Shown: positions 3,001 through 35,925 of the stretch, one piece after another
How the letters are laid out: the number at the start of each line of letters is the position of its first letter
Position numbering within the stretch: the stretch's first letter is position 1
NCBI GenBank assembly: GCA_964592785.1
Contig: CAZQHU010000003.1
Span: 3,901 to 67,900, forward strand
DNA: 64,000 nt
Source: an uncultured Gammaproteobacteria bacterium
Lineage (GTDB): Bacteria > Patescibacteriota > Patescibacteriia > Magasanikbacterales > UBA922
Direction of reading: 5' to 3'
Translations under genes and position numbers: made by a program
Notes under the pieces: generated by a model
The model's input: only the letters and a program-made list of their open reading frames with translations
The model's database searches: none
What the model was told of the DNA's origin: nothing

Positions 3001-3778
3001 CAGTTTCTTTTTTCACCACCTCAGCAGGAGTTTTTATTTTGCCACTAATAAGATCAGTGACAGCTTTAAATCCACCACCCTCAAGCCGAGAAGTATTGGC
3101 CCCGGCAATGGCATTAGCATTTATACGATCGATCCTACCCATAGCCCCAAGAGCAATACCAAAATCACTTTCTTCTATGCGGATGGAGTTGGCAAAAGTT
3201 TGTGATAAAAATTTACTGGCCCCAGCCCCATATCTTTCTTCAAAAGAATCCGCACTCCAAGCATTGGAAAGTTTTTGCCAATTACAAGAAGACTGTGGAC
3301 CGGTGCCGGCTTGTTTTACTGTTGGATCTGAATAAAGATTACGCAAACCTACTTGCAAAAAAGTATTCAAACGAATATCTGGAGTCTGACAAAGATTCAA
3401 ACCAAACTCTGTACCCAACTGTTCAATGGCGCTGGCCGCGCTGTCTAGAGCCACTCCTTTGAAATAAGTGCCAGCATCTTGATCAAAAACTAACGGCTTT
3501 TGACCTTTGGAACCAGAGACTACCGCCATGGCCGCGTCATAAGCCAATTTGCGCATAAAATAAGAAGCTGCTTGAAGCAAGGCTGACAAAGCAGCTGACT
3601 CTAGAGATTTCAAAATCTGGTCAGCCGAAACTTTACCAGTAAAAGCCGCTGTAATCGCCGCATCCATCTGGGCTTGAGCTGGTTTGGCAAAAGCTAAAAT
3701 TCCAAATAACTGAACAAAAATAAAGATCGCTACCATTAGTCCGAAAAATCTTTTTTTTGTCCTAGTAAAATTGAACAT
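1..3778 (-). CDS. Giant secreted cysteine-rich surface protein, over 1259 aa; C-terminus lies beyond the left edge of the window
   Basis: The minus-strand frame starts at ATG 3778 and reads MFNFTRTKKRFFGLMVAIFIFVQLFGILAFAKPAQA-QMDAAITAAF..., a signal peptide with an AQA cleavage site. The codon phase was checked at both ends (triplets starting at plus-strand positions congruent to 2 mod 3) and spot-checked for stops in several stretches. It is missing from the ORF track because there is no stop inside the window. No other long ORF occupies 1-3780. The body is Cys/Gly/Asn/Asp-rich, typical of CPR giant surface proteins. Confidence 0.6.
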   Translation of the reverse strand, partial: MFNFTRTKKRFFGLMVAIFIFVQLFGILAFAKPAQAQMDAAITAAFTGKVSADQILKSLESAALSALLQAASYFMRKLAYDAAMAVVSGSKGQKPLVFDQDAGTYFKGVALDSAASAIEQLGTEFGLNLCQTPDIRLNTFLQVGLRNLYSDPTVKQAGTGPQSSCNWQKLSNAWSADSFEERYGAGASKFLSQTFANSIRIEESDFGIALGAMGRIDRINANAIAGANTSRLEGGGFKAVTDLISGKIKTPAEVVKKETESISSKQSSELSTSQIAGVYGSGSLQLLPMAASVFLNTLTSQLLKSLTSWASGLLSGDKSGSSGNNVIDFYSQQVANNRKQAEQTFGFLIASVSTQQLQNYVPSDEFAACPDNPGLNNCVIDTGLQDALQRARTNQPVTIAQALTDGMLHADWPLISPRRVTDNTDVAGCFLRGYCYSNLQKLRKARVLPIGFELAALKASPDNPQDWTLGKVVQGFDDCDYEDTNNSGRLGDTVNGVSDKAKPSTAHPFCHLIDPNWIIKSPEARCETKVVGPILTNSESAQRQEVCVDISTRIVEEENPENLGYFSYCLKEKNIWDIGGTSCEPYYNTCTTFSDRNGRLTSYLARTLDYGVCNSESVGCRAYSLEKNNGQWINSEQIDDDPDWQDRKELGRTQVLFLNDKVKNYTCSSGADGCSLFSGITDDGQLAGDVYLRRAPDYLGCYDIDLTDDEIDWPGTTVELASLADRPAECKNFAQVCLADEVGCENYRPTAGGVTIPGIVGENSCSQECVGYDTYKQEKTNFSPVVFPMYFNPLDGRACEPQYAGCDEFTNIDELNKGGEGLEYYTDLRYCERPTTNNQKTYYSWEGDANQGYVLKTHRLMPVDSEEANYLQSPGLGLSPEMQNELAVGPAYVDDNKQTLEFNYTYCNASAYALLLQSPALVGAALQDCRALYDDQGQVYYRLLKETVTVDQSCHPLRKTVSEFYVDDSISDPAICSNRGGVMQNGECNRCYRGGTYENGSCVYWTISRTGESTSCPAIANGCRAYIGNAGNNIKQILTFAFEPTGTSSDALNEAMEGWSSLTDNVNLRVRPESIVVGQYSLNVQAQVAGEAGAFEYVFATNTLERNDWYEISFWARGTGSSETVISNIYFEENGVQGRFTSSDIQGDFSVSIGTGWQQYKLGPVQFTGDGSQVAKLRFVISQGTQPVSYFFDNIQITRLDDHLYRVKDSWKTSAGYDVPLACDDNPSDAFPGAALGCKAYTNSRGVSVYATGFEKLCR

Positions 3779-4661: not shown

Positions 4662-5549
4662 TCACTTGATTCCCAAGTTTTTCAATTTCTCTATGATTCT
4701 TTTCCAATCATCTACAGCCAATTCTTCAGCCCTGATTTTTTCATTATTCAAAACATCTTTTAAAACATTTTTTACTTTTTCATTCTCAATTTTCAATCCA
4801 ACTGATAAATTTTTATGCAACTGTTTCCTCTTGTTTGCAAATCCAGCTCTCACTACTCTAAAAAACTCCTCATCACTAATCTTTTCCCTCCCCTCGTAGG
4901 GGAGGGAAGGGATGGGTTTTGCTTTATTGTTTTCATGTTTTAATGTTTTAATGTGTAAAATCGCACTATCCACTTTCGGACTGGGCCAAAAATTTCCTCG
5001 TGAAACAATATCCACAATTTTGGGCTCACTATAATATTGAACTGAAACTGCCAGTAAACTCATATCGCCAGGTTTTGAACAAATCCGTTCGGCCACTTCT
5101 TTTTGTACCATAATAGTAATTGATTCTGGTTTATTTTCCAATTCTAAAAGAGCGCGTAAAACATTGGAAGTAATTTGATAAGGAAGATTGGCTACAACTT
5201 TGTAATTTATAATTTGAAATTTGAAATTTGAAATTTGAGTGAGTGCATTTCCCCAAATGATTTCTAAATTTTTTAATTTCTTGATTTCTATTTCTTCTTG
5301 CCAATACTCCCTCAACTTTTTCTCAATTTCAAATGCTACTACTTGCCTCGCCTTTTCTGCCAGGGCAAAAGTAAGCACCCCAAAACCCGGCCCGATCTCG
5401 ATCACTGTATCAGTCTTAGCCACTCCCGCCGCCTCAATCATTTTTTTTATCGGCCAATCTTGAATAAGATAATTTTGACCATACTTCTTGCTGGGAGTAA
5501 GGTCGTATTTACTACAAAGAGATTTGAGGATTGTAGGAGTAAGGGACAT
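4662..5549 (-). CDS. rsmA: 16S rRNA (adenine1518/1519-N6)-dimethyltransferase RsmA/KsgA; contains an in-frame palindromic insert and a 7-nt x4 tandem repeat
   Basis: KsgA-like motifs (GQNYLI, EIGPGFGVLT, NLPY). Confidence 0.85.
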   Translation of the reverse strand: MSLTPTILKSLCSKYDLTPSKKYGQNYLIQDWPIKKMIEAAGVAKTDTVIEIGPGFGVLTFALAEKARQVVAFEIEKKLREYWQEEIEIKKLKNLEIIWGNALTQISNFKFQIINYKVVANLPYQITSNVLRALLELENKPESITIMVQKEVAERICSKPGDMSLLAVSVQYYSEPKIVDIVSRGNFWPSPKVDSAILHIKTLKHENNKAKPIPSLPYEGREKISDEEFFRVVRAGFANKRKQLHKNLSVGLKIENEKVKNVLKDVLNNEKIRAEELAVDDWKRIIEKLKNLGIK

Positions 5550-7462: not shown

Positions 7463-7858
7463 CTACATCACAAAATCACCTTGTGACAATTTTTCTGCTA
7501 ATTTAATTTCTGACCAAAGCATAGCGCCAATTTCCTCACCCAATTTTATCGCATGTTTGTATTGTTCATTTTTTATCCAGTCTGTATCTAAAGCAAAATA
7601 ATATAAATATCTTGATTCTCCAAGCGAACCATAGGACATTTCATAAAAATTTAACTTAACTTTCGGCCTTCTTCTACAATATCCTTCTACATAATTTAAA
7701 ATAACTGACAATGATGTCCTGCGCAATTGAGAAACTGATGAATACATTTCTTGTTTTGGAAAATCTTCTGTTATTTTGTAAGTATATTTTACAAATTCAT
7801 GCATTAATTTTTTTAATTTATTCTGAAATGGCGTCATCGTTTTTTCAAGCATAATCAT
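7463..7858 (-). CDS. Four-helix-bundle protein of the 23S rRNA intervening-sequence family
   Basis: Typical CPR four-helix-bundle protein. The track ORF 7463..7915 overlaps prfB, so the start was trimmed to the internal Met (MIMLEK...). Confidence 0.6.
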   Translation of the reverse strand: MIMLEKTMTPFQNKLKKLMHEFVKYTYKITEDFPKQEMYSSVSQLRRTSLSVILNYVEGYCRRRPKVKLNFYEMSYGSLGESRYLYYFALDTDWIKNEQYKHAIKLGEEIGAMLWSEIKLAEKLSQGDFVM

Positions 7859-7890
7859 TGTATAATTTAGTGATGTTGTGATGTAATGAC

Positions 7891-9000
7891 TTAGTGATTC
7901 AGTGACTTTCGCCATCTCAAATAACTTTCTACAAACCCATCCAGATCTCCATTCAAAACTCCTTCATCATCAGTCGTTTCGTGATCAGTTCGCAAATCTT
8001 TTACCAAATGATAAGGATGAAGTACATAAGAACGAATCTGGCTCCCCCATTCTGGAGATTTGTATTCACCACGTAATTTTTGTTTTTCCGCTTCTTCTTC
8101 CTCGTCTTTTATTTTTTGTAATTTGGATAATAAAATCTTCATCGCCACTTCTTTATTTTGTTGTTGTGATCTTTCATTTTGGCATTGTACAGTAATACCG
8201 GTCGGCAGATGAACAATCCTCACTGCTGAATAAGTAGTATTCACGGATTGCCCACCCTTGCCACCACTCATAAAAGTGTCTATACGTAAATCTTTGGAAT
8301 CAATCTGAATTGTTTCAGATTCATCAAGCTCTGGAATAACTTCCACTAAAGCAAAAGAAGTATGGCGCATTTTCTCGGCATCAAAAGGTGAAATCCGCAC
8401 CAAACGATGCGTGCCGTGTTCTGATTTCAAATGTCCATACGCATGATCCCCCTCAACCCGAAAAATAATTGATTTAAACCCAGCTTCCTGCCCTCTGGTT
8501 TCATCCAGAATAAAAACTTGCCAGTCCTTTTTTTCACAATAACGAAAATACATACGACTAAGCATCTCTGCCCAATCTTGGGCTTCGGTCCCACCCGAGC
8601 CAGCATGAATCGCGACAATAGCACCGTGATCATCATATTTTTCACTCATCAATGTTGTAAATTCCAACTTTTCAACTTGTTCGCTTGCCAATTCATATTG
8701 TTTCTCAATCTCTTCCCGTAAATTTACATCCTTGTCTGCCTCATCAAATCTCGCCATTTCTAATAAATCATTTATTTGTTGAGACAATTTTAACCAATTA
8801 TTTTGTTCACTTTGTAAATAACTAAGTTGCTTGCTTATCTTGGCTGCATTTTCTTGATCATTCCAAAAATCAGGAATATTCATTTTTTCTTCCAAATTTT
8901 TTATTTCTTGCTTTTTTTGTTCCAATTTTAACATCACTTGTAAATCTACAAGTTTTTTATTTAACCTTTCCAAAGATTGAACAAGTTCATGCATTTCCAT
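7891..9000 (-). CDS. prfB: Peptide chain release factor 2
   Basis: SPF and GGQ motifs (RISPFDAEK; [12 protein letters not shown]). The ORF is continuous, with no programmed +1 frameshift. Confidence 0.9.
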   Translation of the reverse strand: MEMHELVQSLERLNKKLVDLQVMLKLEQKKQEIKNLEEKMNIPDFWNDQENAAKISKQLSYLQSEQNNWLKLSQQINDLLEMARFDEADKDVNLREEIEKQYELASEQVEKLEFTTLMSEKYDDHGAIVAIHAGSGGTEAQDWAEMLSRMYFRYCEKKDWQVFILDETRGQEAGFKSIIFRVEGDHAYGHLKSEHGTHRLVRISPFDAEKMRHTSFALVEVIPELDESETIQIDSKDLRIDTFMSGGKGGQSVNTTYSAVRIVHLPTGITVQCQNERSQQQNKEVAMKILLSKLQKIKDEEEEAEKQKLRGEYKSPEWGSQIRSYVLHPYHLVKDLRTDHETTDDEGVLNGDLDGFVESYLRWRKSLNH

Positions 9001-16732: not shown

Positions 16733-16740
16733 ATTTTAAA

Positions 16741-17225
16741 TCCCCTCTAGAGAGGGGTGGCTCCGACGTCGCAGTCGGAGACGGGGTGTGTTACCGTTGG
16801 TTAGTGATATAATTTTCTATTGTATAAAGTACTGATTCAATATTTTTTCTTACTTCAGTTTCTGTAAATCTTAAAAATTTTAGGCCTTTATTTTCTAAAA
16901 ACTCTTGTCTCTGTTTATCGTAATCTGACTTCATATCATGACTAGCAAAACCATCTATTTCTATTGCTAACATTAATTTGGGGCAATAAAAGTCTACAAT
17001 ATAGTTGTGGATTGATTTTTGACGATGAAAGTCAAAACCCAACATTTGTTTATTTTTTAAATATTTCCAGAGTATTACTTCGCCTAGTGTGGAATGTTTG
17101 CGTAGTTCCCGGGCCTTTTGTTTTAATGATTGTTGGTAGTTAATAACTGGCATAATTTTGCAAACCACGGTCACACACCCCGCCCGCTCGAGCGGGCACC
17201 CCTCTCTAGAGGGGATTTTGTCGGT
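16741..17225. mobile_element. Putative mini mobile element: a DUF559 endonuclease gene flanked by about 55-bp structured terminal inverted repeats
   Basis: Left TIR (16742-16796): CCCCTCTAGAGAGGGGTG-[hairpin gctccgacgtcgcagtcggagac]-GGGGTGTGTTACCGTTGG. Right TIR (17163-17217, reverse complement): CCCCTCTAGAGAGGGGTG-[hairpin cccgctcgagcgggc]-GGGGTGTGTGACCGTGG. Confidence 0.6.
16791..17153 (-). CDS. DUF559 endonuclease-like protein (Vsr/restriction-endonuclease-like fold)
   Basis: GFDFHRQKSIHNYIVDFYCPKLMLAIEIDG...EFLENKGLKFLRF is typical DUF559. The ATG start MPVINYQQ was chosen; the track's GTG start lies inside the TIR. The stop codon is supplied by the inner end of the left TIR. Confidence 0.75.
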   Translation of the reverse strand: MPVINYQQSLKQKARELRKHSTLGEVILWKYLKNKQMLGFDFHRQKSIHNYIVDFYCPKLMLAIEIDGFASHDMKSDYDKQRQEFLENKGLKFLRFTETEVRKNIESVLYTIENYITNQR

Positions 17226-17390: not shown

Positions 17391-17906
17391 ATGGAGGAAA
17401 CCATGGACAGAAACCAACTTCTCAAAAAGATCCAAACAAAGCTTCAAGAAGAAAGAAGCAAAAAAGAAAAAAGGGCTTTGTGGTTGAAATTGTTCAAGGC
17501 TTGTCGATGCCACCGAACTGATTTCATAGATCCAGAATATTTTCCCATCCATGATGAAGAAGGCGAATTCACCGAAAGAGACATACGCCCATATGTTGAG
17601 GAGTATGCCTTCCTCAATCCAGTCACTGGCTATGAAGCCGTTGAACAACTTCTAAAAGGAGGATATTATCTGCTTGAGATGAGGGACGGCCTACTCTACA
17701 TCGGACAGAAGCCCGAAGCAATTGAAAAGCATGAGCTGATAATCATCGGAGCGGTACGCGAAACTGATGATTACATGGCAGTCCCTATTTTCCGTACATC
17801 CAAGATCTTCAGAAGGCGCATAGCTGATTACTATTTCCTCCACTACACTTTCGACACCAACTGTCGCTTTTTGGTCTTCAAAGACAGGACCAGAACTAAT
17901 CCGTAG
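17391..17906 (+). CDS. Hypothetical protein, about 45% GC; possible cassette g
   Basis: GGAGG lies 4 nt upstream of the second ATG (17403). GC-rich palindromic mini-hairpins follow the stop. Confidence 0.5.
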   Translation: MEETMDRNQLLKKIQTKLQEERSKKEKRALWLKLFKACRCHRTDFIDPEYFPIHDEEGEFTERDIRPYVEEYAFLNPVTGYEAVEQLLKGGYYLLEMRDGLLYIGQKPEAIEKHELIIIGAVRETDDYMAVPIFRTSKIFRRRIADYYFLHYTFDTNCRFLVFKDRTRTNP

Positions 17907-18138
17907 CCCTCCACCCCGGCTGGCAGGGCCGTTCTCTCTGCCATTCCCACTCACCCCCCTTAATAAAGGGGGGCGAGGGGGGATGTTGACCAATATCCCT
18001 CCTAACCTCCCTTTACTAAGGGAGGAACCATGACCATCAAAAAACTCCCCCAACCTCTTAGTAAGAGGGGGACAATAAAACCGCCCTCACGGACGGTTTT
18101 AACTTATTAAACTTAGTTACTTAGTCAACTTAAAAAAC

Positions 18139-19434
18139 TTACTCCTCTTTATCCTGAGCGTCAGTCGAAGGATTTTCCTCAACAACTTCATCCACAACTG
18201 GCTCTACAGTTTCACTGGGCTTTTCTTCCAATACTTCCTCTACTTTTTCAACTTCGTCTTCACTACTTATCACTTTTTCTTCATTACCTTGCTCTACCAC
18301 ATTGATTTTCCAACCAGTGAGCTCAGCCGCCAAACGGACATTGGCGCCACCACGACCAATGGCCAAAGAAAATTGATCGGAAACAACATTAACTGTCGCT
18401 TCTTGTGTTTTTTCATCCAATTCCACACTTTCCACCTTGGCAGGAGAAAGTGCATGTTTGATGTATTCTTCTGTTTTTTCACTGTATTGAATAATATCTA
18501 TTTTTTCTCCACCCAATTCTTCAATAATAGTATTGATACGACTACCACGTTGACCAATACAAGAACCGATTGGATCAATAGACTCATCATCAGTGGCTAC
18601 TGCCACTTTGGAGCGTACTCCAGCTTCACGAGCAATACCCTTGATCACCACTGAACCAGAAGCAATCTCTGGAATTTCCTGAGCAAAAATAGCTTCCACC
18701 ATTTTGGGAGTAGCGCGAGATAAAATAATTTCCAAACCACGAGTGCCCATATTAACAGCCGAAATATAAAAACGCATTCTTGCTCCTGGACGATACATTT
18801 CACGCTGAATTTGTTCACTTACTGGCACCAAAGCCGTGGTTTTACCAAGATCAATAATAATTGCACCAGTTTTATCACGACGTTGCACCGTGCCCTGAAT
18901 TGTCTCGCCCACTTGTTCTTTCAATTCATCATAAACTGTACTGCGTTCAGCTTCACGCAAGCGCTGGATAATAACCTGCTTGGCGGTTTGTGCAGCCATA
19001 CGACCAAATTCCCCAGGAACTTCAAGGGGTATTTCCATAGTCTCACCTACTTTGACTTTCTTATCTATAGCTTTGGCTTCGGTAATCATCAACTGGGTTT
19101 TGGGATTGAAACGAGCCAAGTCGGCCATTTCTTCTTCTTCCAACTCTCGCCCTTCGGCATGAGCTTTTTCCCTACGAACGTTTAATTCTTCTTGATCGCG
19201 TTCCAATTTTTCCGGATCAATATCTTCTACTATTTCCTTGATATCCCAAGCTTTCATATCCTGAGTTTCTGGATCATATTTGACTTTGATATTTTGCTGA
19301 CGATTGCCAAAATCCTTGCGATAGGCGGCTGCGAGTGCTGCTTCAATAGACTCCAAAACTGCTTCATAAGTAAGACCTTTCTCAGCGCAAATGGCTTGAA
19401 TGGCTTTGGTGATTTCTGACATAGGATTATTCAT
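18139..19434 (-). CDS. nusA: Transcription termination/antitermination factor NusA
   Basis: NusA N-terminal, S1 and KH regions, plus an acidic C-terminal tail. Confidence 0.9.
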   Translation of the reverse strand: MNNPMSEITKAIQAICAEKGLTYEAVLESIEAALAAAYRKDFGNRQQNIKVKYDPETQDMKAWDIKEIVEDIDPEKLERDQEELNVRREKAHAEGRELEEEEMADLARFNPKTQLMITEAKAIDKKVKVGETMEIPLEVPGEFGRMAAQTAKQVIIQRLREAERSTVYDELKEQVGETIQGTVQRRDKTGAIIIDLGKTTALVPVSEQIQREMYRPGARMRFYISAVNMGTRGLEIILSRATPKMVEAIFAQEIPEIASGSVVIKGIAREAGVRSKVAVATDDESIDPIGSCIGQRGSRINTIIEELGGEKIDIIQYSEKTEEYIKHALSPAKVESVELDEKTQEATVNVVSDQFSLAIGRGGANVRLAAELTGWKINVVEQGNEEKVISSEDEVEKVEEVLEEKPSETVEPVVDEVVEENPSTDAQDKEE

Positions 19435-27546: not shown

Positions 27547-27590
27547 AAAATATTTTATTTTTATTTAAATTAAAAAGAAGAAAAAATTTG

Positions 27591-27674
27591 TACCGCGAGA
27601 GAGACTTGAACTCTCATGGCCTTGCGGCCGCTGACACCTGAAGCCAGTGCGTCTACCAATTTCGCCATCGCGGC
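27591..27674 (-). tRNA. tRNA-Leu (anticodon CAG), type II with a long variable arm
   Basis: Minus strand: GCCGCGA-TG-GCGAAATTGGTAGACGC-A-CTGGC-TTCAGGT-GTCAG-CGGCCGCAAGGCCAT-GAGAG-TTCAAGT-CTCTC-TCGCGGT-A. The acceptor, D, anticodon and T stems all pair. The anticodon loop TTCAGGT gives CAG. Confidence 0.85.
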
Positions 27675-31641: not shown

Positions 31642-33099
31642 ATGAACTGGTTCAAAAAATATTACCCTCTTCTTATCATTATTCTACTTGGCCTAATACT
31701 CCGTCTTTTTGTAATAATTAAGTATGGTTCATTCTGGGATGACGAAATGTTCAGCTTTGTTTTTAGTCAAAAATCCTGGACAGAAAGTTTTGTTTATTGG
31801 CTCTATGAAACCAACCCGCCTCTGCACTTGTTGTTTTTGAAAATTTGGTTTTATTTTTTACCGGCTAGCGAATTTTTCGCCAGATTACCCAGTCTCTTAT
31901 TTGCTCTCGCCACCATACCTCTCGTCTATTTACTGGGAAAAAATTGGCAAGGAAAAATGACCGGCTATATCACCGCTTTTTATCTAGCTCTTCATCCTTA
32001 CCATATCTTTTGGTCAGCTACTGCCAGGACTTATACCCTAACAATTTTTTTAACTACCGGCGCAGTTTATTTTTTTTATAAAATATTTTTTCTGGAAGAA
32101 AAAAATAGAAAAAATTATTTGGGTCTGGCCATTTTCAACCTACTCTCACTATTATCACACTTATCCGCTAGCTCAATCATACTCACACAAATTTTGTTAT
32201 TGCTCTACAAAAAAACAAATTTCAAACTCTGGTGGCAGATAAATATTACCCCTCTAATTCTCGCTGGCTCTTGGCTAATCTCTTCGCTTTGGTTGAAAAT
32301 GTCTAATCTAAATAAATCGTGGTTTTTCAATTTGAATCATGATCTAGATACATTTCTCACTCCTCTATCTAATATTTTCCTCGGCGTCTACCCACCAAAA
32401 ATGACTTTACTTTTCATTATTCCCCTACTAATTATTTTGTTTATTTTTCTCAGTAAAAAAATTAAAGAAAAAGCAGAAAAAACTTTTGTCATCTTGGCTA
32501 TCGCTCTCCTACCGATGTTTATTTCTTTTTTCTTAAATCTCTGGCATATCAAATTTTTCCTAGTCAGTTTGCCTTTTTGGCTCTTATTGGTAGCTGGAGC
32601 TTTTGCAGAAGTTTTGAAAAACAAAAAATTAATTTTTATAGCCTTGGGATTATTTTGTAGTAGTGGACTTATTTTTTTATGGTCTTTCTTGCCACTGACA
32701 AACTGGCAACCACTGCAAAAATATCTCACTACAAATTTTAATCCAGCCAAAAAACAAGCTCTGGTTTATAACAACTACATATTGGACCCACAAATAGAAA
32801 AGTACTTGAAACCGCCACAAGAAAACATGCCTTTTGTAATAGAATCAGAAAAAAATTGGGAAGATTGGGCAGTAAAAAGAAATTATCTTTATATTAAATA
32901 CTCCCAAGAACAGCTAACAAATTGGCTATCAAAAAATAATTTATTTGCCAATCAAGAAATCTTTCTTATTCAGGGCGAATATGATTACATGACCAATTTA
33001 AATAAATTACTGGAAAAAAATAATTATATTTTAGAGCAACCTGCTTGGCGTTTGCCTATTCTCGGTCGTTATTATCTCTATCACTATGTCAAAAATTGA
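31642..33099 (+). CDS. GT39/GT83-family glycosyltransferase (ArnT/PMT-like), polytopic
   Basis: N-terminal DDE-containing loop, more than 10 TM helices, and the family architecture. Confidence 0.65.
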   Translation: MNWFKKYYPLLIIILLGLILRLFVIIKYGSFWDDEMFSFVFSQKSWTESFVYWLYETNPPLHLLFLKIWFYFLPASEFFARLPSLLFALATIPLVYLLGKNWQGKMTGYITAFYLALHPYHIFWSATARTYTLTIFLTTGAVYFFYKIFFLEEKNRKNYLGLAIFNLLSLLSHLSASSIILTQILLLLYKKTNFKLWWQINITPLILAGSWLISSLWLKMSNLNKSWFFNLNHDLDTFLTPLSNIFLGVYPPKMTLLFIIPLLIILFIFLSKKIKEKAEKTFVILAIALLPMFISFFLNLWHIKFFLVSLPFWLLLVAGAFAEVLKNKKLIFIALGLFCSSGLIFLWSFLPLTNWQPLQKYLTTNFNPAKKQALVYNNYILDPQIEKYLKPPQENMPFVIESEKNWEDWAVKRNYLYIKYSQEQLTNWLSKNNLFANQEIFLIQGEYDYMTNLNKLLEKNNYILEQPAWRLPILGRYYLYHYVKN

Positions 33100-34006
33100 T
33101 CAGCGTGAAATTGAGTTAATTAAAGCATTTGTGTTGAAAAAACCACGCGAATTTTTTATTGCCCACCCGGAGTACCAAGTTAGCAAGTTAGCAAGTGAAC
33201 AAGTGAATAAGTTGATTAAAAAACGTACTCGTGGTATTCCACTCGCTTATTTACTTGGCAAAAAAGAATTTTTTGGGTTGAATTTTACAGTAAATAAAAA
33301 TGTTTTGATTCCTCGCCCAGAGACAGAACTGATGGTAGAAAAAGTTTTACAAAAAATCAAGAATTCAAAAAACCAAGAAATTATTTTAATTGATATTGGA
33401 ACTGGTACTGGATGTATTCCCATTTCAATCATAAAAACAATTAACCCCACCCTACCCTCCCCTACAAGGGGAGGGAAAGGGAGAGGTTTCGCCGTCTTTG
33501 CCACGGACATCTCCCAACCAGCTTTGTCTGTCGCCAAAAAAAACGCCAAAAAACATAATGTAAAAATAAAATTCCTTCACGGCAACTTGCTTGAACCATT
33601 TCTCTGTCATCCTGAATTTATTTCAGGATCTTTCCCAAAATCAAACCTGCTAAAAAGTATATCTGGAGAAAAGATGCTGAAACAAGTTCAGCATGACATC
33701 ATCATCACCGCCAACCTCCCCTATCTTACACCTCAACAACTTAAACAAGAACCCTCAATAAAACACGAACCTCACCTCGCCCTCGTCGCTGGCAAAGATG
33801 GACTAAAATACTACCGAGAACTTCTTAAACAAATTAATATATTGACTTCGGACTACAGACTACAGACTACAGTTTTTTGCGAAATAAATCCGGAACAAAC
33901 AAAAAATATAAAACTCCTTACTAAAAAAATTCTTCCCCAAGCCAAAATAACCCTCCACCAAGATCTGGCTGGAAAAAATAGAGTGGTGGAGATAATTCCC
34001 CTCTAG
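33086..34006 (+). CDS. prmC: Release factor glutamine N5-methyltransferase PrmC/HemK; contains two in-frame palindromic-element insertions
   Basis: SAM motif IDIGTGTG and NLPY (a variant of NPPY). Classic prfA...prmC linkage. Confidence 0.85.
   Translation: MSKIDQREIELIKAFVLKKPREFFIAHPEYQVSKLASEQVNKLIKKRTRGIPLAYLLGKKEFFGLNFTVNKNVLIPRPETELMVEKVLQKIKNSKNQEIILIDIGTGTGCIPISIIKTINPTLPSPTRGGKGRGFAVFATDISQPALSVAKKNAKKHNVKIKFLHGNLLEPFLCHPEFISGSFPKSNLLKSISGEKMLKQVQHDIIITANLPYLTPQQLKQEPSIKHEPHLALVAGKDGLKYYRELLKQINILTSDYRLQTTVFCEINPEQTKNIKLLTKKILPQAKITLHQDLAGKNRVVEIIPL
33606..33698. repeat. Two-hairpin MITE-like element, copy 2; 93 nt, inserted in frame in prmC
   Basis: It encodes LCHPEFISGSFPKSNLLKSISGEKMLKQVQHD between the SAM-binding region and the NLPY motif. 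Confidence 0.75.
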
Positions 34007-34150
34007 AGAGGGGTGCCCGCTCAAGCGGGTGGGGTGTGTTACAATAGCAAAAATTAAAAACAACGGTCACACACCCCGTCTGCCTCCCGCCTGCCATGCC
34101 TGGCACTGGCGGGCAGGGCGAAGGCATACACCCCTCTCCAGAGGGGATCG
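34001..34150. mobile_element. Cargo-less TIR pair (MITE) of the DUF559-element family
   Basis: CCCCTCTAGAGAGGGGTG-hairpin-GGGGTGTGTTAC, an 18-nt spacer, then CGGTCACACACCCC-long hairpin-CACCCCTCTCCAGAGGGG. Confidence 0.6.
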
Positions 34151-34164
34151 CCTCTTGACAAACC

Positions 34165-34193
34165 CATAAAAATAAGCTATAATGCCCTGTTCT
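34165..34193 (+). promoter_or_regulatory. Consensus promoter TTGACA-17-TATAAT of cassette d
   Basis: TTGACAaacccataaaaataagcTATAAT. Confidence 0.65.
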
Positions 34194-34393
34194 TTGAAAA
34201 TTTTCAAACGGCTTATAAATTAGCCAATTTTTGACTAATGTCTAGGCCGTTTGAGGCTTAGGGAACAGAAAAACTACTGTTGAAGGAGTGGCCTGTATAG
34301 GGGGCAACTACCGAGACCTTTTTGAAGGTCATTACAGCAAGTTTCTGTTTTCCCGACTTCCTGTTCCGCCCGAGGCGGACAAGAGGAGGTACC

Positions 34394-35161
34394 ATGCCCA
34401 GTTTCTCCAACAAGTTCCTGAAAGTGGAGAGCGACCGCTCTCCGGTGGGACAGCGGACCCGTCTGCTGGTCCTCTGGTCATACTTCATGGCCATTCTCCT
34501 GGGTGGCCTGTGGCTGATGCCCAGCTCGATGGCAGTGGCGAACCTGATCCTGATGGGTTTGAACACCCTCATCTTCGCCCGCTGGGTGTCCAAGAATGGG
34601 GTGGATTACTACCCCAAGAAGGAAAACAGAAAATACCCCCCGTTTCTTCCGAGATGGGGAGAGGGTACGCGTCGGTACTACTTCGTACCGGCGATCATGA
34701 CCAGCACGATCTGGTCGGCAGTGTTTTTCGGCTGGAACACCTGGTTCAGCGAAAACTTGTTGTGGATTGTTTTGGGTGTTATGTGCATCCTTCTCGCCAT
34801 CTTTCTGGTCCCCTACCTGTGGGGTAAGAGGGCATCCAGGAAAAGCAAGAGATTCATGGCCCAGCAAGACGAGGAGAGACGAAAGCAGAAGGAGATCGAC
34901 GAGCTGATTCAAGCGGCGATGGGAAGGAAGGAACTCGAGATTTACGAGAGGGAGAAAGAGTTCCTTCGTGACCTGGCAGTAATCATCGCCAACTTCCACT
35001 ACGAAAAGGGAAGAAAGCCCTCGAAGAGGGACGCCGAACTCCGGCAGAAACTCGAGGCGATCCTCGAGTACTTCGTCGGCCCGAGCGAGGCCGAGGCCAT
35101 GGTCGCCGAGGAGCTCTACCGCCTCACTCGTGAGGCGAAGAAGGCCACGGTGGCCACTTAG
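34394..35161 (+). CDS. GC-rich (about 57%) membrane protein of 255 aa: about 4 TM helices plus a charged coiled-coil C-terminus (cassette d)
   Basis: GAGGAGG lies 5 nt upstream of ATG 34394. The overlapping track ORFs 34258-34999 on other frames are GC artefacts. gttcgttcttt follows the stop. Confidence 0.6.
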   Translation: MPSFSNKFLKVESDRSPVGQRTRLLVLWSYFMAILLGGLWLMPSSMAVANLILMGLNTLIFARWVSKNGVDYYPKKENRKYPPFLPRWGEGTRRYYFVPAIMTSTIWSAVFFGWNTWFSENLLWIVLGVMCILLAIFLVPYLWGKRASRKSKRFMAQQDEERRKQKEIDELIQAAMGRKELEIYEREKEFLRDLAVIIANFHYEKGRKPSKRDAELRQKLEAILEYFVGPSEAEAMVAEELYRLTREAKKATVAT

Positions 35162-35180
35162 ACACTGTTCGTTCTTTAGA

Positions 35181-35232
35181 GGGGCGCCGACCGGTTGAGT
35201 TGAGATTTACTTCTCCTCCCGGTCGGCGCCCC
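35181..35232 (+). repeat. Conserved 3' hairpin of cassette d (14-bp stem GGGGCGCCGACCGG / CCGGTCGGCGCCCC)
   Basis: Cassette e carries GTCCGACCGG/CCGGTCGGAC, a compensatory variant, and shares the loop start ttgagtt. Confidence 0.7.
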
Positions 35233-35239
35233 GATGTAA

Positions 35240-35306
35240 TCAAGTGTTTGTAAAATATTTTGTAAATAGTTGAAAATAAAAAATCCGCTGATAAGGCGGT
35301 TTTTTT
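35240..35306 (+). repeat. Conserved cassette 3' module, copy B, plus terminator
   Basis: tcaagtgtttgtaaaatattttgtaaatagttgaaaataaaaaat-CCGCTGataaGGCGG-ttttttt. Confidence 0.8.
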
Positions 35307-35747: not shown

Positions 35748-35792
35748 CCATCCGCCCGAGTCAGGGCAAACCAAATTGTTTCGTTCTTTAGC

Positions 35793-35841
35793 GGGTCCGA
35801 CCGGTTGAGTTAATGCCTCCTTGGCATTCTCCCGGTCGGAC
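35793..35841 (+). repeat. Conserved 3' hairpin of cassette e
   Basis: GTCCGACCGG-ttgagtt...-CCGGTCGGAC. Confidence 0.65.
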
Positions 35842-35847
35842 AATCCA

Positions 35848-35925
35848 ATCAAATGTTTGTAAAAATTATTTTGTAAATAGTTGAGAATAAAAAATCACTT
35901 AATAATCTAAGTGATTTTTTATTTT
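35848..35925 (+). repeat. Conserved cassette 3' module, copy C, plus terminator
   Basis: atcaaatgtttgtaaaaattattttgtaaatagttgagaataaaaaat-CACTTaataatctAAGTG-tttttt. Confidence 0.8.

Follow-up and report, generated by a model that had tools for sequence, protein, structure and literature searches.

Why should two unrelated genes of one bacterium carry the same GC-rich repeat, in frame, within their coding sequences? The question is raised by a 64-kb stretch of DNA (the window, always meaning the whole stretch analysed), which is AT-rich (39% GC) and which its proteins assign to Candidatus Magasanikbacteria, within the Candidate Phyla Radiation (CPR). One of the two genes is rsmA/ksgA, on the minus strand at 4662-5549 (TIGR00755, E 7e-64), the other prmC, on the plus strand at 33086-34006 (TIGR03534, E 1e-64); the scores of both open reading frames (ORFs) exceed the NCBIfam equivalog cut-offs. 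The explanation that best accounts for the observations as a whole is that the repeats in rsmA and prmC are solo copies of a triplex motif (TM) which probably spread as DNA elements, possibly via endonucleases of the DUF559 family. The repeat class itself is already known; what is new here is the presence of TMs in frame in CPR genes, together with a lead on the mechanism of the class.

Architecture of the repeat in the window

A sequence-only reading of the window had described the rsmA copy at 4886-4916 (reading ccctcccctcgtaggggagggaagggatggg) and the prmC copy at 33455-33486 (reading ccctcccctacaaggggagggaaagggagagg). A reread of the window and of the ORF translations bore out the two sequences, their positions and their in-frame peptides, KPIPSLPYEGREK for rsmA (minus-strand reading) and NPTLPSPTRGGKGRGF for prmC, as well as the preservation of both frames and the central claim that one repeat family lies in frame in two unrelated genes; that interpretation is supported. 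The common core, CCCTCCCCT-N3-AGGGGAGGG, has exactly two sites in the 64 kb, one in rsmA (4886-4906) and one in prmC (33455-33475), and a search of the same 64 kb with the loosened pattern CCCTCCCCT-N3-6-AGGGGAGGG returned no site besides these, nor did any of 100 dinucleotide-shuffled versions of the window contain a match to the core pattern. This identical 21-nt core is read in different frames in the two genes. Both copies have 9-bp perfect stems with a 3-nt loop, and folded as RNA they reach -23.1 kcal/mol in rsmA (z -4.5) and -28.1 kcal/mol in prmC (z -3.6). An assembly artefact is ruled out because the elements were found again in independent assemblies (NCBI, two Logan runs, JGI and ENA), and translational bypass or an intron is superfluous, since each coding copy is stop-free and in frame.

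Two earlier statements need qualification. The elements had been called perfect GC-rich hairpins, which is correct for the stems but not for the elements as a whole: they are no plain palindromes but asymmetric, a hairpin followed by a mirror-repeat tail. The host genes had been called essential methyltransferase genes; they are indeed methyltransferase genes and conserved housekeeping genes, but "essential" was overstated, ksgA being dispensable in E. coli.

It is this tail ("AAGGGA..."), overlooked in the sequence-only reading, that identifies the family: it is a mirror-repeat third strand, which therefore places the family in the BoxC/PIT/TM class. In a TM unit, a C-rich arm of 9 nt is joined by a 3-nt loop to its G-rich complement, and a further loop of 2-3 nt leads to another G-rich segment, the mirror image of the purine arm. 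An ITxF-like scan of the window with the criteria of Holder et al. 2015 found 5 motifs at 3 loci (one in rsmA, two in prmC that share a hairpin, and an inverted pair in a spacer), against none in 100 dinucleotide shuffles; a relaxed scan of the window yielded no extra locus and added one degenerate third strand, at the spacer locus. The rsmA TM (4886-4917, plus strand) has its C-arm at 4886-4894, a loop at 4895-4897, its G-arm at 4898-4906, a second loop at 4907-4908 and its third strand at 4909-4917 (GGGATGGGT, 8/9 mirror triads). The third strand is perfect (9/9, GGGAGGGGT) in the close relative L002, one of two comparison contigs from another sample (L001 and L002) that are 96.6-99.7% identical to the window. 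The prmC element is a double TM (33444-33487, both strands, encoding NPTLPSPTRGGKGRGF) around one common hairpin at 33455-33475, with third strands at 33479-33487 on the plus strand (GGGAGAGGT, 8/9) and at 33444-33452 on the minus strand (GGGTGGGGT, 9/9). The rsmA and prmC copies thus each have a third strand with at most one mismatch after a loop of 1-6 nt.

The sequence-only reading had also suspected related mini-hairpins in a spacer, and these are present, at 17954-17973 and 18006-18025, and of the same TM class. They belong to TM 1 (17954-17984, plus strand; CCCCCCTT-aata-AAGGGGGG-cga-GGGGGGAT, 8/8 triads) and TM 2 (17995-18025, minus strand; CCTCCCTT-agta-AAGGGAGG-tta-GGAGGGAT, 8/8), an inverted pair between an ORF of unknown function (17391-17906) and nusA (18139-19434). 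Judged by architecture, both the rsmA and the prmC copies are G/C-rich purine-motif intrastrand triplex motifs of the BoxC/PIT/TM_ECO class. They depart from the intergenic location of that class, 2 of the 3 loci in the window lying inside ORFs.

A cross-phylum class and its relatives

We surveyed the symmetric core over one genome per GTDB species. Among the matches listed, which comprise 133 copies, are Xanthomonadales, Burkholderiales, Geobacterales, Nostocales, Bacteroidota, Saccharibacteria, Anaerolineae and others, so that the TM class is cross-phylum, a spread that had been overlooked before. A conserved extension with the consensus tTgGGGtGGGG accompanies 119 of the 133 listed copies, on one side of the core in 111 and on both sides in 8, and the opposite flank has no consensus. 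Because the conservation concerns one flank only, we reject the reading of these repeats as plain, REP-like palindromes. A mirror third strand is found within 1-6 nt of the listed copies, perfect (9/9) in 99 of the 133 and at least 8/9 in 115; the fit is to G*G:C and (A/T)*A:T triads, and control flanks taken 100 nt away give 9/126. The repeat is multi-copy, with at least 120 loci in each of two collections, and its stems are fixed and its loops variable. Most copies on low-GC contigs are intergenic, without orientation bias; as to a viral vector for the repeat, IMG/VR has the core in only 66 stretches. A terminator or other strand-specific RNA role was considered and discarded: orientation is not biased (++ 14 vs -- 10), copies occur in divergent spacers too and there is no U-tract. 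Rfam at its gathering threshold reported only a tRNA in the window and 12 TM loci, and a literature search on the exact DNA and peptide strings, or on CPR with palindromic and in-frame, returned nothing relevant.

The class has been named successively BoxC, PIT and TM_ECO (Bachellier et al. 1990s; Hoyne and Maher 2000; Holder et al. 2015, PMC4666352). TM_ECO, with the consensus CCCTCNCCC-N3-6-GGGNGAGGG-N3-GGGNGAGGG, amounts to 3610 copies in 262 genomes; in E. coli K-12 it is always intergenic, shows no strand bias and forms inverted pairs of two types, and it has been found to adopt a triplex in vitro and has been linked to strain-level instability (PMC4666352). The repeats studied here share with BoxC/PIT/TM_ECO the three-block layout (9-nt C-rich stem, 3-6-nt loop, G-rich stem, short loop, mirror G-rich stem), conserved stems with variable loops, multiple copies in many bacteria, the lack of strand bias, the two-type inverted pairs and the tie to strain-level rearrangement. 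They differ in their stems, CCCTCCCCT/AGGGGAGGG/GGG(T/A)GGGG vs CCCTCNCCC/GGGNGAGGG/GGGNGAGGG: the exact TM_ECO consensus is not present, and CCCTCCCCT/AGGGGAGGG/GGGATGGGT match it at 8/9 positions per stem, which suggests that the rsmA and prmC copies form a subfamily of the class distinct from TM_ECO. They differ also in residing in frame within genes at 2/3 loci, whereas the TM_ECO copies of E. coli K-12 all lie between genes, in having as host a CPR bacterium of 39% GC, and in the DUF559 link presented below, which is absent from PMC4666352. A class described as "always intergenic" is hereby found to reside in frame as well, within core genes of a CPR bacterium whose genome is reduced.

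The closest parallel for that residence is offered by the Rickettsia palindromic elements (RPE), which are about 100-150 bp long and Rickettsia-restricted according to the account of Ogata et al. 2000 given in PMC10969869. As far as that account goes, RPE too are palindromic repeats that sit in frame in unrelated housekeeping genes of a reduced genome and add fold-compatible extra peptides; our elements insert in the same fold-compatible way in unrelated genes, but have neither the RPE length of about 100-150 bp nor the RPE sequence family, since they are 32-45 nt long and have the TM sequence of a cross-phylum class, and no triplex tail is part of that account of RPE. They are a second clear case, after RPE, of selfish-looking DNA shaping protein loops. 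The REP/REPIN-RAYT system (Bertels and Rainey 2011, PMC3116915) is similar in its dispersed short structured repeats with paired inverted copies and in its single-copy nuclease-type gene flanked by inverted repeats. The flanked gene is, however, not one for a Y1 HUH transposase here but a PD-(D/E)xK gene of the DUF559 family, whose enzymatic link to the repeats we infer, and REPs, hairpins specific to each species, lack a mirror third strand. GC-rich palindromic elements of only about 20-40 nt, which nest in one another and may lie within genes of AT-rich genomes, are reportedly also found in cyanobacteria, as small dispersed repeats (Elhai et al. 2008), and in yeast mitochondria, as GC clusters. 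To our knowledge, neither triplex architecture nor DUF559 association enters the definition of these repeats or clusters.

Host loops, nucleotide conservation and competing explanations

Orthologue alignments (14 sequences first, then about 70 per protein: PrmC 68, RsmA 70) found the insert residues missing from most orthologues, relative to which the rsmA and prmC copies are insertions. In PrmC the insert separates the GxGxG helix (110-119) from the next strand (135-141); most orthologues have a brief variable loop there, e.g. SIIKTSKHKNIKTFAIDIS, and the closest relatives either share the peptide of the window, have another GC-palindromic one (SPYKGEVGGGF) or the two in tandem, or carry members of further repeat families. 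In RsmA the insert falls in the linker joining the methyltransferase domain to the C-terminal helical domain, and this site shows the same pattern; KsgA of B. subtilis lacks the segment. Over the 68 PrmC and 70 RsmA orthologues, the two sites are thus occupied by this TM, other TMs (SPYKGEVGGGF, PPLLKGGRGDIG), tandem TMs, other repeats or nothing. AlphaFold models have mean predicted local distance difference test (pLDDT) values of 87.3 for PrmC and 89.6 for RsmA, with values <50 solely at residues 127-132 and 185-198 of PrmC, its two insert sites, and at residues 206-221 of RsmA, its insert. The sites are thereby predicted to be disordered surface loops, where any stop-free in-frame insert yields a harmless Pro/Ser...Gly/Arg/Glu peptide. 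The second PrmC site corresponds to an unrelated insert of a different repeat family (CHPEFISGSF...MLKQVQHD), in frame on the plus strand at about 33605-33697; that prmC holds two different inserts had been noticed from the sequence, and rightly so. In-frame TM copies were also found in an Elp3-like gene (L221) and, directly before the NPPY motif, in a 1086-aa N6-methyltransferase restriction enzyme (L232, L233).

Other in-frame repeat families make use of the same permissive PrmC and RsmA loops (IRKSGLSVIRK; CEERSDE...ARNDI or EIASS...PRNDI), and the Elp3-like gene of L221 has three inserts of two families. At position 4703 of L002 (window 5069), rsmA has a further in-frame insert of 24 bp, CGTTCGGCAGGCTCACGACAAGCA (RSAGSRQA), which the window lacks.

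The TM class undergoes strain-level turnover. L001 and L002 retain both the rsmA and the prmC copies, and their other hairpins differ. At prmC site 2, L001 has a TM, CCCCCCTTT-tt-AAAGGGGGG-ca-GGGGGGATT (PPFLKGGRGDFG), in place of the second insert of the window, and at this point the homology between the two falls from 99.5% to 79% and then disappears over the following 2 kb or so downstream. Of the strains, only L001 has a 32-bp hairpin, an 86%-identical copy of the spacer TM pair is found at another locus of L001 (9827-9898), and 80 kb of related loci contain 30 TMs, many of them within prmC.

Between 99.5%-identical flanks, the segment 33585-35860 (vs L001 9476-11333) forms a strain-variable island of 49% GC against the 39% background; it includes ORFs without a Pfam match (34322-35161), and a stem-loop of about 85 nt is repeated in it at 35165-35254 and about 35780-35860.

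What is conserved in prmC is the DNA and not the peptide. The element is identical at 48/48 nt between the window and L244, whose PrmC has 65% protein identity, whereas the rest of the gene has 67% nucleotide identity and the same codon at 55% of the conserved residues; the codons of the element are rare in this genome (CTA 7%, AGG 6%, GGG 13%). Nor do the residues persist in PrmC or RsmA orthologues apart from the DNA palindromy, the finding that would have told for a protein loop: orthologues that keep the insert residues keep the palindrome nucleotide for nucleotide. To judge from these comparisons, selection or homogenisation targets the nucleotides, and the conservation within coding sequence goes beyond what selection on the protein explains.

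Such conservation could also be expected if the element were kept for a DNA or mRNA structure serving the host gene, as a replication, transcription or translational pause or as a recombination hotspot by which adjacent DNA is diversified. The 48/48 identity persists amid diverged synonymous sites, with rare codons and against the AT mutation pressure; the hairpins are stable (-23 to -28 kcal/mol); the rsmA copy lies exactly at a domain linker, where a translational pause could help co-translational folding; and the break in strain homology at the prmC site-2 element agrees with TM-linked instability (PMC4666352). Yet most orthologues do without the element, or have an unrelated one at the same site, and the family is mainly intergenic with no orientation bias relative to genes. 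In E. coli, moreover, PIT/TM repeats have neither promoter or terminator activity nor an association with a class of genes, and purine-motif triplexes do not form in RNA (PMC4666352). We regard a structural service to the host gene as unlikely to be the explanation.

A second alternative, to which we give slightly less credence still, is that the relevant fold is not a triplex but a G-quadruplex (G4) competing with the hairpin, in a hairpin/G4 switch. Canonical four-tract motifs (four tracts of at least 3 G with 1-7-nt loops) are present on the strand antisense to each host gene, GGGGAGGGAAGGGATGGG on the plus strand for rsmA and GGGGAGGGTAGGGTGGGG on the minus strand for prmC, four G-tracts start from the purine arm in 111 of the 133 listed copies, and repeats of E. 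coli have been proposed to switch between G4, hairpin and duplex (PMC5100583). The register of the tail speaks against it: its non-G residue mirrors the A of the purine arm, with a perfect match in mirror orientation in 99/133 of the listed copies vs 29/133 in direct orientation, and it tracks that A across subfamilies (AGGGGGAGG/GGAGGGGGT, AAGGGAGG/GGAGGGAT, AAGGGGGG/GGGGGGAT), which a G4 does not need. This mirror-register test weakens the G4 as the only explanation; in addition, the plus-strand tail of prmC, GGGAGAGG, lacks a fourth G3 tract, and TM_ECO gave triplex signatures in vitro (PMC4666352).

It is scarcely credible that the segments are merely loops of the usual lineage-specific kind, kept by selection on the protein, with incidental palindromy: although PrmC orthologues of 65-82% identity share the peptide NPTLPSPTRGGKGRGF unchanged, the 21-nt core occurs in two unrelated genes and two reading frames, all synonymous sites are conserved and rare codons used, the segments are disordered in the models and missing from most orthologues, and elsewhere the DNA motif is mostly intergenic.

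DUF559 endonuclease genes beside triplex motifs

The reading of the two copies as solo TMs that spread as DNA elements calls for an agent, and the window contains a candidate. A DUF559 gene, coding for a Vsr-like PD-(D/E)xK endonuclease, lies at 16791-17174 on the minus strand (PF04480, E 8e-32) between 55-nt TM-like inverted repeats whose loop 2 has a hairpin. The left terminal inverted repeat (16738-16797) reads AAAT-CCCCTCTAGAGAGGGG-(small hairpin)-CGGGGTGTGTTACCGT, and the right one (17165-17216) is its reverse complement; we call the left end TM-like because its GGGGTGT mirrors AGAGGGG. A gene-less miniature of this unit, with the same two ends and only 22 nt plus an extra hairpin between them, occupies 33998-34148 and begins in the last codons of prmC, so that the last codons and stop of this gene (ccc ctc tag) come from the miniature. 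Ends shared with a gene-carrying element, as in miniature inverted-repeat transposable elements, are thus found for the DUF559-unit subfamily, not for the rsmA and prmC copies. No transposase was found among the window ORFs scanned. After the miniature, at 34155-34195, stands a perfect promoter-like site, TTGACA-17-TATAAT, conserved in L001.

DUF559 genes are associated with TMs well beyond the window. A profile built from three such proteins and run on all fetched loci detected a DUF559 gene in 12 out of the 120 TM loci from metagenomes, as well as in two loci selected by PrmC (L247, L249); a TM stands at the edge of the DUF559 gene in 14 of 15 cases, and where both sides are visible the TM pair is inverted. 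When the 129 ORFs located at most 120 nt from a TM were scanned with Pfam, DUF559 was the commonest family, with 7 members (next family 5, others at most 2), and no Y1 (HUH) RAYT transposase was found there or among the annotated genes of the window and the loci. A reciprocal sample of 12 taxonomically spread DUF559 loci, obtained by tblastn in plasmid records, had flanking TMs in at least 8. TMs directly flank DUF559 in Synechocystis, Azospirillum, two Deinococcus species, Sphingomonas and Qipengyuania, the Deinococcus genes lying inside the paa and hpa operons and the Sphingomonas one adjoining dnaG, and TM arrays adjoin DUF559 in Photobacterium and Neisseria gonorrhoeae. In the six array-free loci, 14 TMs lie within 150 nt of the DUF559 gene vs 1 elsewhere in +-3 kb. 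In E. coli K-12, which has 18 TM loci in 4.6 Mb, the DUF559 gene ycjD is 168 nt from one of them (TM_ECO no. 9), and the ycjD segment takes the place of the eefRABCD operon in several phylogroups (PMC12817139). Holder et al. (PMC4666352) mention neither ycjD nor DUF559 nor any endonuclease, and we found no paper in the literature that makes the connection.

The arrays alternate in orientation and are tandem, at 3406-4990 of L317 (Photobacterium), with a period of about 145 nt, and at 3499-4199 of L328 (N. gonorrhoeae); L038 (Geomonas) has four copies of the hairpin core spaced by about 120 nt. The TM-flanked DUF559 genes that sit within otherwise conserved operons (paaD-paaZ, hpaB-hpaE, gatB/yqeY-dnaG-rpoD; L322, L323, L325) look like selfish insertions.

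These observations can be combined into a mechanism. On single-stranded DNA the third strand of a TM would fold back, with G*G:C and A/T*A:T triads as the result, and the TM repeats would spread as DNA elements, possibly through a DUF559 endonuclease acting on the folded single strand, an activity that is predicted. TMs flank DUF559 genes as inverted repeats in many phyla, as REP sequences do around RAYT genes, and the DUF559 protein of the window may be regarded as a candidate cognate nuclease of the class; the window contains a single DUF559 unit, together with its gene-less miniature. In-frame copies in loops would be the survivors, because selection would purge insertions elsewhere in coding sequence. 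One might further speculate that BoxC, PIT and TM repeats in general are the cis-acting ends and solo derivatives of hitherto unrecognised DUF559-based mobile units, comparable to REP/RAYT, whose nuclease recognises the folded structure and which in CPR bacteria have moved into coding sequence and reshape surface loops of core enzymes, a generalisation that we hold to be possible but rather doubtful. The DUF559 link is in any case the first concrete, testable enzyme candidate behind BoxC/PIT/TM repeats, and it offers a candidate function for the widespread DUF559 domain, that of E. coli YcjD included.

Several points weigh against the spread of TMs as mobile DNA, or against the part given to DUF559 in it. 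In the sequences compared we saw no transposition event, no target-site duplication and no clean empty site for the rsmA and prmC copies, the sole candidate duplication (RTAAA around the 32-bp L001 hairpin) being ambiguous. The loop aca is common to the prmC copies of orthologues with 58-65% protein identity, which indicates that these copies are orthologous and the insertion old, vertically inherited and unchanged; the prmC copy is therefore not one that moved recently. Conservation as strict as that of its nucleotides is unexpected for neutral junk, and the element may have a host function. Holder et al. found neither a triplex in vivo nor a tie of TM_ECO to transposons, phages or plasmids (PMC4666352). 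As for DUF559, its gene was found within 8 kb in 0/120 TM loci of the genome collection (GGGTGGGG-tail type), 3 of the 12 reciprocal loci had no TM, and the TM subfamily of the DUF559 ends in the window is not that of the rsmA and prmC copies. Weighing these points, we still consider solo TM copies spread as DNA the probable origin of both inserts.

Three further features of the region deserve mention. The gene for tRNA-Leu(CAG) at 27590-27674 (minus strand) is intact in the window, and in the 99.4%-identical L001 it is split between D-arm and anticodon stem by a 123-bp insert (3420-3542); this insert is a second, different tRNA-Leu(CAG), with the inverted repeats CTGCCCGCCTAGTGCCTAAT and CTAGGCATTTGGCAGGCGGGC on its flanks. 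A 2915-aa ORF downstream of rsmA extends past the start of the window. Between the genes for RF-2 and Sua5, at about 7463-7915 on the minus strand (L002 1914-2309), there is a small gene with Pfam hits to 23S_rRNA_IVP/bAvd, bAvd being the accessory protein of diversity-generating retroelements.

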